From a virus, in the IMG/VR virus record IMGVR_UViG_3300008116_000076: a stretch of 64,000 nt of DNA, one strand, 5' to 3'. The notes beneath the pieces are model-generated. The model did no database searches and was not told the DNA's origin. It saw only the letters and a program-made list of their open reading frames with translations. The position numbers and the translations under genes are program-made. Positions 36,743-41,266 of this stretch are shown in pieces. The stretch's first letter is position 1; every line of letters starts with the position of its first letter.

Positions 36743-37309
36743 ATGAAAATGAATTTACAATCATATGTGAGAATATATAGTGGTATTGTTGAACCAAATG
36801 TATGCAAACAAACTATTGAAGACTTACGGAATGTCAATTGGCTTAAACATGAATATACTTCAGTTTCAGATTATTCTTCTAGATCTATAAATGGTGAAAA
36901 TGAATTAAGTGTTACTTTTGAACCTATATCCACAAAAAATTATATAGAATCTAAAGTTTGGGAAGCATATAAAAATTATATAATGAGTTTAAATTTTCAA
37001 TGGTTTAATGGATGGAAAAGTTTTACTGATGTAAGATTTAATAGATACGATGAAGGACAGATAATGACTTTACATTGTGATCATATTAATTCAATATTTG
37101 ATGGCGAACGTAAAGGTGTACCTATTATGACCGCACTTGGTTGTTTAAATGAAGATTATGAAGGTGGCGATCTTACAATTTTTGATGATTCATTTATAAA
37201 AATGAAAACAGGTGATATTGTTGTATTTCCATCAAATTTTTTGTTTCCCCATAAGGTTAATCCTGTATTAAAAGGAACAAGATATAGTTTTGTTTGTTGG
37301 GCATGGTAA
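36743..37309 (+). CDS. 2OG-Fe(II) oxygenase (prolyl-hydroxylase-like)
   Basis: HCD...LNEDYEGGDL...FPSNFLFPHKVNPVLKGTRYS. Confidence 0.88.
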   Translation: MKMNLQSYVRIYSGIVEPNVCKQTIEDLRNVNWLKHEYTSVSDYSSRSINGENELSVTFEPISTKNYIESKVWEAYKNYIMSLNFQWFNGWKSFTDVRFNRYDEGQIMTLHCDHINSIFDGERKGVPIMTALGCLNEDYEGGDLTIFDDSFIKMKTGDIVVFPSNFLFPHKVNPVLKGTRYSFVCWAW

Positions 37310-37310
37310 T

Positions 37311-37928
37311 ATGACAAAAATAGATTCTATATTTCCAATACCAATTTATCAGAATAATATAGGAAGACCTTTTTCTAAAAAAGAAAAAGAGTTTGTTTTA
37401 GAATGTGAAAAGTTTTTTAATTTAAATAGTGGTAATACTACTAGTGCTAATAATTATGTTTTAGATGAAGAACCTATGTCAGATATTAAGTCTTTTATAC
37501 AAAATTGTGTACAAGACTATATGAATTGTATTGTAAAACCCAGGTTTGATGTTAATATTCGTATAACACAATCTTGGTTTAATTATACAAAACCTAATCA
37601 ATTTCACCATAAACATTCACATCCTAATAGTTTTATTTCAGGTGTTTTATATATAAATGCTGATCCTGAAAAAGATAAAATAATTTTTCATAGTCCTTAT
37701 TGTAATTATATGTATAATTTACATTGTCCTTCTGTTGAATTGGGAGATTTTAATTCGAATTATGTATATTTCATTAATCAAAATGGGGGATTAATACTAT
37801 TTCCTTCAAAAACACAACATAGTGTTGATATTACACAATCTAAAGAAACACGTATAAGTTTGGCTTTTAATACATTTTTGAATGGTGAAATAGGTGATGA
37901 TAAATCATTAACAGGATTATGGAATTAA
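37311..37928 (+). CDS. Putative 2OG-Fe(II) oxygenase (TIGR02466-like)
   Basis: HSHPNSFISGVLY...FPS..QHSV...RISLAFN. Confidence 0.85.
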   Translation: MTKIDSIFPIPIYQNNIGRPFSKKEKEFVLECEKFFNLNSGNTTSANNYVLDEEPMSDIKSFIQNCVQDYMNCIVKPRFDVNIRITQSWFNYTKPNQFHHKHSHPNSFISGVLYINADPEKDKIIFHSPYCNYMYNLHCPSVELGDFNSNYVYFINQNGGLILFPSKTQHSVDITQSKETRISLAFNTFLNGEIGDDKSLTGLWN

Positions 37929-37929
37929 A

Positions 37930-38520
37930 ATGATGCCTACAATTGAAATTAATCACATTTTTACAAATTTTGTTGCTATAGATTTTATATCAAATAATAT
38001 TCCTGATATAGAAAAATTTTGTTATGATTTACATTCTAAGGATCAAGGAAGATCTCTTAGCAATGTGGGTGGGTGGCAAAGTAATGATATAAATTTAGCG
38101 CAGTGTCTTCCTAAATTATTTTATGATATAAAAGAAAAATTAGATAATTTATATTATTACTTTGAATTTAAAGACGAATTTTTAATTTCCATGGATAATG
38201 CTTGGATAAATATTAATAAAAAAAATCATTATAATTTACCACATCATCATTCTTATGGGTTGTTTTCTGGTGTTTATTATGTAAAAGCGGAAGGAAAAAA
38301 TATAGGCGACGTAGTTTTCTTAAATCCTTGTGTTACTCAGAGTGTTTGTATAAGTGAACATATTATTAAAACTAAAAACCCATTTAATAGTTCTTCATAC
38401 ACAGTAACTCCAAAAACAGGTATGATATTAATATTTCCAAGTTGGATGATGCATTATACAAATCCAAATGAAACAGATAAAGATAGAATAAGTATAGCTT
38501 TTAATTGTTATATTAAATAA
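37930..38520 (+). CDS. Putative 2OG-Fe(II) oxygenase (TIGR02466-like)
   Basis: SNVGGWQS, HHH..FSGVYY, FPSWMMH, RISIAFN. Confidence 0.85.
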   Translation: MMPTIEINHIFTNFVAIDFISNNIPDIEKFCYDLHSKDQGRSLSNVGGWQSNDINLAQCLPKLFYDIKEKLDNLYYYFEFKDEFLISMDNAWININKKNHYNLPHHHSYGLFSGVYYVKAEGKNIGDVVFLNPCVTQSVCISEHIIKTKNPFNSSSYTVTPKTGMILIFPSWMMHYTNPNETDKDRISIAFNCYIK

Positions 38521-39085: not shown

Positions 39086-39161
39086 GCTGGTATAGCTCAG
39101 ACGGTAGAGCAGTTGCCTTGTAAGCATCAGGTCGAGGGTTCGATTCCTTCTGCCAGCACCA
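39086..39161 (+). tRNA. tRNA-Thr(UGU)
   Basis: Loop CT-TGT-AA, ACCA. Confidence 0.9.
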
Positions 39162-39171
39162 GGAGATAAAT

Positions 39172-39276
39172 ATGGATAAAATGCATTTAAGAATTATGTG
39201 GATGAAAGTTATAGCATTCTTTCTTCTAGTCATTACAATGGGATTTATAGCGCAAGATCTATTTACGTTTGGTTAA
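39172..39276 (+). CDS. 34-aa membrane peptide
   Basis: AGGAGA RBS; hydrophobic ORF between tRNAs. Confidence 0.5.
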   Translation: MDKMHLRIMWMKVIAFFLLVITMGFIAQDLFTFG

Positions 39277-39277
39277 T

Positions 39278-39351
39278 GCGGGTGTAGCTCAATGGTAGAG
39301 CCATAGTCTTCCAAACTAAAGACGAGGGTTCGATTCCCTTCTCCCGCTCCA
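39278..39351 (+). tRNA. tRNA-Gly(UCC)
   Basis: Loop CT-TCC-AA, U73, CCA. Confidence 0.9.
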
Positions 39352-39394: not shown

Positions 39395-39792
39395 GGGATC
39401 AGTTCAGCAACTAACTATGCATTGGAGCAAAAAAGTTGATCCCGTTAATTTTAGGATTGTTTCAGCAAACAATAAAGGTAACAAACTTTCAACTTTGTTA
39501 CGCCGACAAATACAATCCTGTTAGTTTTGGGAAGCATACAGCAAACAATTATACTCGGCCCCTGGGCCAAGGTACGCTCATGGTGAGCATTGTTTCCCGT
39601 TGGTTTTAGGATGACTGCCGCAATTAATCTAGGACTTGTAATCCCGTGGTCGTGGGTGCAAATCCCACCCTCTCCACCATCTATGGGGAGGTAGCTCAGT
39701 AGTAGAGCACGTAAAAGTTCATCCTGTTAGTTTTGGTTTGAGTTCCGCAACTATCAAAAATCATACTTGAAATATGACTCAAAGTTCAAACC
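39395..39792 (+). ncRNA. Array of five stem-closed Y-RNA-like units
   Basis: Units 39395-39443, 39453-39519, 39529-39598, 39608-39725, 39735-39792; covarying terminal stems, C(A/C)GCAA at nt 11-16, GTTRRTTTT linkers. Confidence 0.8.
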
Positions 39793-39810: not shown

Positions 39811-41235
39811 ATGTCTACTTTTGTTAATGCTGTAAAGAATCAGTCTGCTCGTACCGAAAATGGTATGAAGGCTCTAAAGTCAACTGCTAATCCGCTAGTT
39901 GATCTTTACTTCAACATTGGTGCTTCTCGTGGTAAGGATATCATCCCTGCTTTCGTAGCTGCTTATGTTACTAACAAGGATATTGCAACTCGTATTGCTC
40001 TTTGGGCACGTGATGCTCGTGGTGGTTCTGGCGAACGCAAGATCTTCCGTGATATTTTCCAGTATCTATGTGACAACGATCCTGCACTAGCTGCTCGTAT
40101 TGTGCATAAGGTTCCGGAACTTGGCCGTTGGGATGATCTCCTAACTGCAAAGGGCGATGTTCGTAAGTCTGCTTTCGAGTTTATCCGTGAAGGTTTGTCA
40201 AACCAGAACACTGCTGGACTTGTTGCTAAGTGGATGCCTCGTAAGGGCGAAGTGGCTGCAGAGCTACGTGCATTCCTTGGTATGACTCCAAAGCAGTATC
40301 GTAAGACTCTGGTTAACCTAACCAACGTTGTTGAAACTCCAATGTGTGCGAATAAGTGGGATGAGATTGACTTTAATAAGGTTCCTTCTCTTGCTGCTGC
40401 TCGTTACAAGAAGGCGTTCAACAAGCACTCTGTAAAGTTTGCCGAGTATGTTCAGAAGCTCGTAAAGGGCGAGGATGGCGTAAAGGTTAATGCTGGAGCA
40501 GTTTATCCTTACGATGTTCTGAAGGGTGCTGCTAATCATTATTATATGTCGAGCTACGACGCCACTGAACTTGGACATATCCAGGCGCAGTGGGATGCGC
40601 TTCCTAACTATGTTGGTGATGCTAACATTCTACCACTGGTTGATGTTTCTGGGTCAATGACCTGTCCTGCAGGTGGATATGGATCAAAGAGTGGTGTTAC
40701 TTGTCTAGACGTTGCAGTTTCTCTGGGACTGTATCTTGCTGATAAGAACAAGGGTAAGTTCAAGGATACGTTCTTGACTTTCTCTGAAAATCCAGAATTA
40801 CTGCATCTCAAGGGTAACATTATTCAGAAGATTAACCAGATGGTTAGATCTAAGTGGGCAATGGACACTAATCTACACAAGGCTCTGGACAAGATCCTTA
40901 CTGTAGCAAAGGAAGGTAATGTTCCTCAGGAAGAAATGCCTGACATGCTCCTGATTCTTTCTGATATGCAGTTCAATCAGTGCACTCGTCATGATGATTC
41001 TGCTCATGAGATGATCGCTCGTAAGTATCATGCTGCTGGTTATACTATGCCAAAGGTAGTGTTCTGGAACCTTAATGCTGCTTATGGCAATCAGCCAGTT
41101 AAGTATGATACTTCTGGAGTTGCTCTTGTTTCTGGATTCTCTCCTGCACTGGTTAAGGGTCTAGCAAATGTAGAGAACTTCTCTCCAGAAGCAATTATGC
41201 TTGACACTATAATGAATGAGCGTTATAATTACTGA
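39811..41235 (+). CDS. Ro60/TROVE-related DUF2828-type protein with C-terminal vWA domain
   Basis: RTENG, WARDARGGSGER, GRWDDL, AKWMPR, MIDAS DVSGSM, ILSDMQF, VFWNL, VSGFSP. Confidence 0.8.
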   Translation: MSTFVNAVKNQSARTENGMKALKSTANPLVDLYFNIGASRGKDIIPAFVAAYVTNKDIATRIALWARDARGGSGERKIFRDIFQYLCDNDPALAARIVHKVPELGRWDDLLTAKGDVRKSAFEFIREGLSNQNTAGLVAKWMPRKGEVAAELRAFLGMTPKQYRKTLVNLTNVVETPMCANKWDEIDFNKVPSLAAARYKKAFNKHSVKFAEYVQKLVKGEDGVKVNAGAVYPYDVLKGAANHYYMSSYDATELGHIQAQWDALPNYVGDANILPLVDVSGSMTCPAGGYGSKSGVTCLDVAVSLGLYLADKNKGKFKDTFLTFSENPELLHLKGNIIQKINQMVRSKWAMDTNLHKALDKILTVAKEGNVPQEEMPDMLLILSDMQFNQCTRHDDSAHEMIARKYHAAGYTMPKVVFWNLNAAYGNQPVKYDTSGVALVSGFSPALVKGLANVENFSPEAIMLDTIMNERYNY

Positions 41236-41240
41236 ATGAT

Positions 41241-41266
41241 AGGAGGGTACTTCCCCTCCTTTTTTA
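41241..41266 (+). terminator. Rho-independent terminator
   Basis: AGGAGGG...CCCTCCT followed by a T-run. Confidence 0.75.

Follow-up and report, generated by a model that had tools for sequence, protein, structure and literature searches.

The 64,000-nt viral DNA sequence of IMG/VR record IMGVR_UViG_3300008116_000076 (hereafter the window, i.e., the whole stretch that was analyzed) contains an array of five tandem units, which fills positions 39395-39792 of the plus strand between a tRNA-Gly gene (39278-39351) and an open reading frame (ORF; 39811-41235). For each unit a common frame, referred to below as the handle, was distinguished: the 5' and 3' ends pair over 7-8 nt and enclose a variable interior (the cargo), and the motif C(A/C)GCAA sits in an 8-11-nt bulge of the 5' strand, directly after the 5' arm. 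In units 1-4 the 3' arm is followed by a U-rich tail, which in unit 5 is replaced by the ribosome-binding site of the ORF. By analogy with the Y RNAs of bacteria, we consider it probable that the five units are Y-RNA-like partners of the ORF product, a phage Ro60-like protein, and that the resulting ribonucleoprotein (RNP) displays parts of tRNAs.

Units of the array and the adjacent Ro60-like gene

A simple unit finder recovered all five units (Table 1) and no other chained units elsewhere in the 64-kb window. The array was not detected by Tandem Repeats Finder, since the units are too divergent and only their frame is conserved. In silico analysis of the interiors distinguished the following cargos: (i) in unit 1, whose 3' tail extends to ~39452, a small hairpin (39418-39429), which is not anticodon-like and is kept in two related loci (L005 and L008; L-numbers denote individual related loci); (ii) in unit 2, a non-canonical anticodon-arm look-alike (stem 39478-39485/39494-39501) with the 8-nt loop CTTTCAAC, which contains the loop heptamer of the Glu-UUC type, the unit 2 ortholog of L005 having one substitution within this loop; (iii) in unit 3, a decayed permuted tRNA mimic, consisting of a closed acceptor and a D-arm remnant, with no T arm and no anticodon arm, whose 14-nt acceptor hairpin is identical to that in the complete YrlA-like unit of L005; (iv) in unit 4, parts arranged in the order of a circularly permuted tRNA with a closed acceptor end, preceded by a hairpin whose loop (CTTGTAA, 39635-39641) obeys the anticodon-loop rules, yet is closed by 3 bp only (39632-39634/39642-39644); and (v) in unit 5, a hairpin of the Ser-UGA type, with a perfect 5-bp stem (39761-39765/39773-39777) and the loop CTTGAAA (39766-39772), which has the pyrimidine at position 32, U33 and the purine (A37) of a canonical anticodon loop.

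The hairpins assigned to units 1-5 in a first-pass annotation of this DNA were all recovered at its positions. Its broader statement, that the units display anticodon loops, holds in full for unit 5 and with the departures given above for units 4 and 2, and does not apply to units 1 and 3.

Table 1. Predicted features of the array and its flanks in the window.
Feature	Position	Strand	Unit finder	Description or basis
tRNA-Thr(UGU) and tRNA-Gly(UCC) genes	39086..39351	+		Immediately upstream of the array
Unit 1, Y-like RNA	39395..39443	+	39395-39443	Handle with CAGCAA, 7-bp terminal stem; unit finder
Unit 2, Y-like RNA	39453..39519	+	39454-39518	Cargo with 8-bp stem and 8-nt loop, 39478-39501
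Unit 3, Y-like RNA	39530..39597	+	39530-39597	Acceptor-like closed hairpin 39556-39567, D-arm-like hairpin 39576-39588
Unit 4, permuted YrlA-like tRNA mimic within the handle	39608..39725	+	39608-39725	Fold and Rfam YrlA match
Unit 4, anticodon-like hairpin	39632-39644			3-bp stem, 7-nt loop of the Thr-UGU type
Unit 4, T arm	39652-39668			
Unit 4, acceptor 3' strand and encoded ACCA	39669-39679			
Unit 4, closing loop	39680-39684			
Unit 4, acceptor 5' strand	39685-39691			7-bp acceptor
Unit 4, D arm	39694-39708			
Unit 5, minimal Y-like RNA	39735..39792	+	39735-39792	Canonical anticodon stem-loop as sole cargo
Ro60-like ring protein, 474 aa	39811..41235	+		Helical-repeat TROVE-like part and vWA with complete MIDAS motif
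Terminator-like hairpin, then T run	41241..41260	+		Right after the protein gene

The closest known counterpart of unit 4 is YrlA, the tRNA-like member of the bacterial Y RNAs. Unit 4 matches the Rfam YrlA model (RF02553) end to end (model positions 1-114; 34.1 bits, E 3.9e-5) and comprises the parts of the YrlA-type permuted domain, namely the T arm, the closed acceptor stem and the D arm. All five units possess the terminal stem, which covaries across the family of related units described below; in this family the bulge motif is C(A/C)GCAA as against the published GNCGAA. Relatives of the array carry YrlA-like units as well, and in addition units whose match to the tRNA model is confined to positions 7-64; these are tRNA bodies with the handle in place of the acceptor stem. 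ARAGORN and the Rfam tRNA model (RF00005, searched with cmscan) call the two tRNA genes upstream of the array and none of its five units.

The array ends 19 nt before the start of the ORF, and the same linkage was found in 139 related loci and in named phages. The 474-aa ORF product matches Pfam families DUF2828 and DUF7788, as well as PHROG 850 ("RNA-binding protein"), and phmmer against the sequences of the Protein Data Bank (PDB) gave no match. Its AlphaFold2 model, built with 24 homologs (mean confidence, pLDDT, 87.9), has as top Foldseek matches Ro60/TROVE structures over the whole length of the protein: the Ro60 of Thermus phage phiLo (9kop, E 2.5e-10, TM-score 0.57; 9l5y, TM-score 0.53) and that of Xenopus (2i91 and 1yvr, TM-scores 0.64 and 0.63, respectively). 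In the von Willebrand factor A (vWA) part, the residues of the MIDAS motif (metal ion-dependent adhesion site; DxSxS), D278, S280 and S282, are invariant in the 24 homologs. The protein is thus predicted, by fold search only, to have the Ro60 fold (a helical-repeat ring with vWA/MIDAS), and is the presumed partner of the five RNAs, as Ro60 is of Y RNAs.

Bacterial Y RNAs are encoded beside Ro60, several per locus and one of them tRNA-like; they bind Ro60 via the stem formed by their paired ends and tether it to PNPase (PMC4201824). In a Thermus phage, Ro60 forms in vitro a ternary complex with two Y-like RNAs encoded upstream of it and with host PNPase (PMC12135203). The YrlA-like character of unit 4, taken together with the Y RNAs that adjoin Ro60 genes in these two studies, is the reason why the array is best read as a set of Y-RNA-like partners of the phage Ro60-like protein.

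The loops of unit 2 (39486-39493) and unit 5 (39766-39772) are complementary over 6 nt, so that a kissing complex could form. We rejected this candidate as probably due to chance: in L005, whose array holds the unit 2 ortholog, there is no partner hairpin, the last unit lacking an anticodon-like loop.

Anticodon-arm hairpins in related arrays

Homologs of the Ro60-like protein were found in 710 phages of INPHARED and in at least 579 further IMG/VR records. The INPHARED homologs include proteins of Felixounavirus (~40% identical to the window protein), "Ro-like" proteins of mycobacteriophages, and proteins of Listeria, Staphylococcus, Campylobacter and Vibrio phages. A megablast search of INPHARED yielded no close named relatives of the window, only tRNA-Thr matches. 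The family set used here comprised the 139 related loci, with 238 distinct units. Of the chained units in these loci, 300 have the orientation of the gene and 6 the opposite one; the arrays hold up to 8 units, and the abutment of the last unit on the protein start codon is the rule. The handle also accompanies the homologous gene of Synechococcus phage BUCT-ZZ01, Aeromonas phage LAh_6, Felixounavirus "warpig" and mycobacteriophage LeBron. For Salmonella phage SE_PL and Vibrio phage VS1, a scan extending 3.5 kb from the gene revealed no units.

A covariance model (R1) was built from 28 short units, with unit 5 in the training set and units 1, 2 and 4 outside it. Over the 64-kb window, R1 matched the array only, with scores of 71.5, 46.8, 40.4 and 25.5 bits for units 5, 2, 1 and 4, respectively (E-values of 5e-9 for unit 2 and 2e-7 for unit 1); unit 3 was not detected by this model. 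In the alignment of the 28 units, which had been picked as already known to pair, 97.6% of the cells in the hairpin and the terminal stem are paired, and 11 of the 12 pairs change on both sides.

As a check of its proposal, the first-pass annotation had suggested comparing anticodon-like loops of homologous arrays with shuffled controls, and an enrichment was found for CT-NNN-AA loops at the related loci. In the 238 distinct units, 30 different hairpins combine a 5-bp stem with a 7-nt CT-NNN-AA loop, compared with 0.48 +/- 0.73 (maximum 4) in 300 dinucleotide shuffles, i.e., anticodon-arm hairpins are ~60-fold more frequent than in shuffles. A test based on position only, and therefore independent of the unit finder, gave 22 hairpins in the 100 nt before the protein start of 110 distinct loci, with 0.38 +/- 0.62 expected. 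Across the plus strand of the whole 64 kb, only 2 further non-tRNA hairpins of this kind occur besides that of unit 5.

The loops themselves follow the rules of anticodon loops. In the 28 units, C32 is present in 24, U33 in 27, A37 in 27 and A38 in 25, and positions 34-36 are variable. U or G occupies position 34 in 35 of the 42 distinct hairpins (47% expected). The strict set contains 13 triplets, all of them ordinary sense anticodons, with no stop anticodon among them; the commonest are Thr-UGU, Ser-UGA and Lys-UUU, and Cys, Ser-GGA, Tyr, Ile, Gln, Arg, Asp, Thr-CGU and Phe types also occur. The first-pass interpretation is supported to the extent that the interiors are tRNA-derived, with true anticodon-arm mimics among them.

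The annotation had also described the interiors as an exchangeable library, and the related arrays, in which different "anticodons" were found on identical stems, agree with an exchangeable cargo set on a constant frame. A Thr-type and a Lys-type loop (L012 and L082), and likewise a Ser-UGA and a Ser-GGA loop (L015 and L110), are one base apart. Since the different triplets stand on identical stems in close relatives, the "anticodon" shifts by point mutation.

As the annotation had noted, the loop heptamers of units 5, 4 and 2 are identical to the loops of tRNA-Ser(UGA), tRNA-Thr(UGU) and tRNA-Glu(UUC) of the window, respectively. The stems of the three hairpins are unrelated to those of the same tRNAs, which indicates that the unit hairpins are not recent copies of tRNA genes. 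The idea that the loops match the phage's own tRNAs is correct within the window, but uninformative, because a phage carrying 23 different anticodons is expected to provide such matches. The comparison was extended to five other phages, for which the tRNA sets were rebuilt. The anticodon of the mimic was found among the tRNAs of three of them, those with 20-27 tRNA types. In contig L134 (~80% complete, so its tRNA set may be partial) only a tRNA-Thr(GGU) was found for a Thr-UGU mimic, and in LeBron only a tRNA-Thr(CGU) for a Thr-GGU mimic. Within the fetched flanks of +/-2-3 kb, a mimic and a tRNA with the same anticodon co-occurred in 4 of 50 cases, compared with 6.6 expected by permutation.

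Possible roles of the cargos

The Y-RNA frame, which the first-pass annotation does not name, suggests a mechanism that, by analogy, is better founded than the wording of decoys alone, i.e., an RNP that displays parts of tRNAs. The tRNA genes, the array and the protein gene probably form one transcript that is later processed, judging from the sequence: no strong promoter was found between the upstream tRNAs and the array, and the hairpin at 41241-41260 is likely the end of the transcription unit. The small RNAs would be cut out of this shared transcript, and the handle of each would dock on the Ro60-like ring protein in the manner of Y RNAs, leaving the variable middle as a tRNA-part cargo displayed to other proteins. 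The cargos would be useless for translation, because their acceptor end is missing or, in unit 4, closed. Such look-alikes could be neither charged nor used in decoding, and could still be recognized by protein readers of the anticodon arm or of the tRNA elbow; these readers would be tethered to the Ro60-like protein or trapped on it. The leading candidates for the captured partner may be tRNA-targeting host nucleases, followed by enzymes of tRNA repair, decay or modification.

Several observations weigh against the reading of the array as Y-RNA-like partners of the Ro60-like protein. With regard to the RNAs, the covariation alignment leans toward structure because its units were chosen as pairing ones, and the folds of single unit sequences are not significantly stabler than those of shuffles (z from -0.4 to -1.9). 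The YrlA match of unit 4 lies below the gathering score of the model (69), as do the scores of units of relatives (34-46 bits), and the handle motif is unlike the GNCGAA of canonical YrlA RNAs (PMC4201824). In a simple scan, 140 of the 238 units (~59%) had neither an anticodon-like nor a T-arm-like hairpin, so that the mimicry of tRNAs covers no more than a part of the cargos. With regard to the protein, its sequence has no match to Pfam TROVE (PF05731); with E-values of up to 10 admitted, the Pfam matches were DUF2828, DUF7788 and a weak one to VWA_2 only.

The first-pass annotation had favored decoys. According to this explanation, the anticodon-arm cargos may soak up or inhibit host anticodon nucleases, e.g., PrrC, RloC, PARIS AriB, retron PtuB, VapC or colicin-like enzymes, and thereby spare the tRNAs of both host and phage; from the sequence evidence we regard it as possible, though rather unlikely. 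The mimics keep U33, A37 and sense anticodons with U or G at position 34, i.e., features that nucleases read, and they do so without the acceptor end; the swapping of "anticodons" by single substitutions on unchanged stems in close relatives resembles an arms race. Lys-UUU, Tyr-GUA, Asp-GUC and Arg-UCU, which belong to the mimic set, are targets of known nucleases, but to our knowledge the commonest mimics (Thr-UGU and Ser-UGA) are not targets of any characterized phage-defense nuclease. A suggestive case is the Lys mimic of Aeromonas phage LAh_6, which has the loop of Aeromonas tRNA-Lys and the same four stem pairs next to that loop, the stem of the phage's own tRNA-Lys being different. It is, however, a single case, and the same AU-rich stem type bears a Thr loop in L060, so that the match may reflect chance or shared ancestry. 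For the mimic of a Synechococcus phage no informative host match was obtained, a 15-nt pattern giving scattered, chance-like matches in unrelated taxa. A member of the protein family, the Ro60-like gp130 of Felixounavirus Bas63, counters the Ppl defense system in E. coli; Ppl is, however, the sole system known to be countered, and its proposed target is DNA (PMC11482910). The RNA ligase gene located beside the Ro60-like gene of Salmonella phage SE_PL also speaks for decoys. Against them, a stoichiometric decoy would have to compete with thousands of cellular tRNAs.

A related proposal joins the decoy idea to the protein scaffold. The Ro60-like ring and the array might form an RNA-based counter-defense device, in which a library of anticodon-arm baits on the protein serves as traps or tripwires for tRNA-cleaving nucleases; we offer this tentatively, as a rather unlikely extension of the RNP reading. 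The anticodon loop is the only link between the handle strands of minimal units, and a cut in the loop would free the RNA and un-gate the ring, e.g., for the recruitment of PNPase or repair enzymes. Single mutations would retune the "anticodon" as host defenses change.

It is very unlikely that the hairpins are leftovers of ancestral tRNA genes, with only the handle, and perhaps the elbow, being functional. The arrays do lie within tRNA clusters (a tRNA-Thr gene adjoins the array in the window and in L009), decayed cargos such as unit 3 and the 6-nt loops of Felixounavirus exist, and 140 of the 238 units lack both hairpin types. Decay does not, however, account for minimal units that keep the anticodon arm alone, for stems that covary around a constant U33 and A37 in loci whose proteins share only 35-88% identity, or for wobble-position rules that are upheld. 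Moreover, the Thr-type hairpin is either fused in a YrlA-like unit (the window and L005) or placed in a separate unit (L001), which suggests that it is retained for its own sake.

We likewise give little credence to the array, or at least unit 5, acting mainly as a cis-acting mRNA leader, in which the protein would bind the handle by its own ribosome-binding site and repress its own translation. The position of unit 5 fits this explanation, as its 3' arm stops ~4 nt before the purine-rich ribosome-binding site that takes the place of the tail, and so does the rule that the last unit abuts the start codon in relatives. Autoregulation leaves unexplained, however, the four other units, the tRNA-like cargo and the arrays that lie downstream of the gene or away from it (Felixounavirus and LeBron), and it does not compete with the Y-RNA-like reading of the array, with which it is compatible.

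That the units are functional, possibly permuted or split, tRNA genes for translation was rejected: despite the 7-bp acceptor stem, encoded ACCA, T and D arms of unit 4, and the precedent of an M. smegmatis YrlA that is cut by RNase P and given CCA (PMC4201824), none of the units is called by the tRNA-finding programs, both the acceptor and the T arm are missing from units 1, 2, 3 and 5, unit 4 has its anticodon hairpin on a stem of only 3 bp and outside the tRNA core, and the phage already encodes tRNA-Thr(UGU) and tRNA-Ser(UGA).

Related systems and neighboring features

The association of Y RNAs with phage Ro60 genes is already known (PMC4201824; PMC12135203). The array resembles the bacterial and mycobacteriophage YrlA/YrlB RNAs that accompany Ro60 (Rsr) (RF02553; Chen et al., 2014, PMC4201824) in that small RNAs, several per locus, lie by a gene for a Ro60-fold protein, have an end-paired stem with a conserved motif, though of a different sequence, in the 5' strand and include one permuted tRNA-like RNA per locus. 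It differs from them in its DUF2828/DUF7788, not TROVE, protein, in the motif C(A/C)GCAA in place of GNCGAA, in its sub-threshold scores, and in the phage arrays of up to 8 units, many with a true anticodon arm. The YrlA domain, in contrast, is explicitly described as lacking an anticodon arm, its "anticodon stem" being the Ro-binding stem (PMC4201824). The phiLo system, with Ro60 and the RNAs Yrl1 and Yrl2 (PMC12135203; 9KOP, 9L5Y), shares with the window a phage Ro60 fold, which is the best structural match, and Y-like RNAs located upstream, but has a CGAA-type motif, only two RNAs and no reported tRNA or anticodon cargo. Bas63 gp130 (PMC11482910) belongs to the same protein family and adjoins tRNA genes, and handle units are present in a sister phage, although the cargo loops of Felixounavirus are non-canonical, being 6 nt long or having an A as residue 33.

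Phage RNAs with anticodon arms have a part in tRNA conflict in other systems: the tRNA-Lys of T5 rescues infection from PARIS (10.1101/2024.01.02.573894) and a phage tRNA-Tyr rescues it from Retron-Eco7 (PMC11555353), and it is the sequence of the anticodon stem-loop that decides nuclease recognition. These rescue tRNAs are complete, chargeable replacements that evade cleavage, whereas the array units are not tRNAs and would act by binding. An isolated anticodon-arm-like hairpin that recruits a tRNA-binding protein, just upstream of a ribosome-binding site, is present in the operator of E. coli thrS mRNA. That operator is cis-regulatory and has one synthetase and one fixed anticodon, unlike a trans-acting family with many anticodons on a handle.

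Among the accessible papers on DUF2828, phage Ro60 and anticodon decoys, we found none that describes the C(A/C)GCAA handle, arrays with as many as eight units, or Y RNAs with an anticodon-arm cargo. Ro60 and Y RNAs form a conserved RNP, and why Y RNAs mimic tRNA is a standing puzzle, which becomes sharper in this phage family; the constant handle with interchangeable tRNA parts, including bare anticodon arms with many rule-abiding anticodons, makes the question directly testable. If the baits did act on defense nucleases, they would represent a new class of RNA-based phage counter-defense, and part of the "extra tRNA-like genes" of large phage genomes would be accounted for. Even otherwise, the handle motif permits the systematic annotation of an apparently undescribed small-RNA family in hundreds of phages.

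Some related loci have a distinct organization. In Escherichia phage warpig (Felixounavirus; L056:3250-3545), two handle-bearing units, one of them a YrlA-like permuted tRNA mimic, lie between tRNA genes downstream of a "vWFA protein" gene. The authors of the PhageMaP study guessed that some "tRNAs" of Felixounavirus are Y RNAs (PMC11482910), and the warpig units are probably the Y RNAs that they suspected in Bas63. In Synechococcus phage BUCT-ZZ01 (L055:3088-3320), two adjacent tRNA-like genes downstream of the Ro60-like gene have the same ~30-nt insert in the anticodon region, which includes a handle-like CTGCAA motif. An R1 unit (20.5 bits) takes in the 3' half of the first gene together with the 5' half of the second, and looks like a YrlA-type permuted mimic extending across two split tRNAs. 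Long cargos (120-235 nt) within the handle were found in four loci (L010:2550-2916, L016:454-786, L019:2605-2979 and L028:2683-2916); they share a T-arm-like hairpin (loop TTCGA) and a block that ends in CCAGAAAATAA, and matched no Rfam family. The Rfam search of long cargos, with no match, covered lengths of 170-235 nt.

A near-consensus sigma-70 promoter (TTGACT, 17-nt spacer, TATAAT) is located between two units in L001 (2750-2805) and in the corresponding interval of L005, so that part of the array has a promoter of its own in some relatives. In the window (41201-41260), a perfect match to the sigma-70 promoter (12/12) overlaps the final codons of the Ro60-like gene, directly followed by the terminator-like hairpin and then by a deaminase gene. 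Three consecutive 2OG-Fe(II) oxygenase paralogs (36743-38520) are situated between the main tRNA cluster and the array, and the region downstream of the Ro60-like gene encodes a dCMP deaminase, a PD-(D/E)XK nuclease and a PhoH-like protein. In Salmonella phage SE_PL (L177:1977-3185), the annotated RNA ligase gene is located ~300 nt upstream of the Ro60-like gene, a neighborhood that points to a possible link of the protein family to RNA repair.

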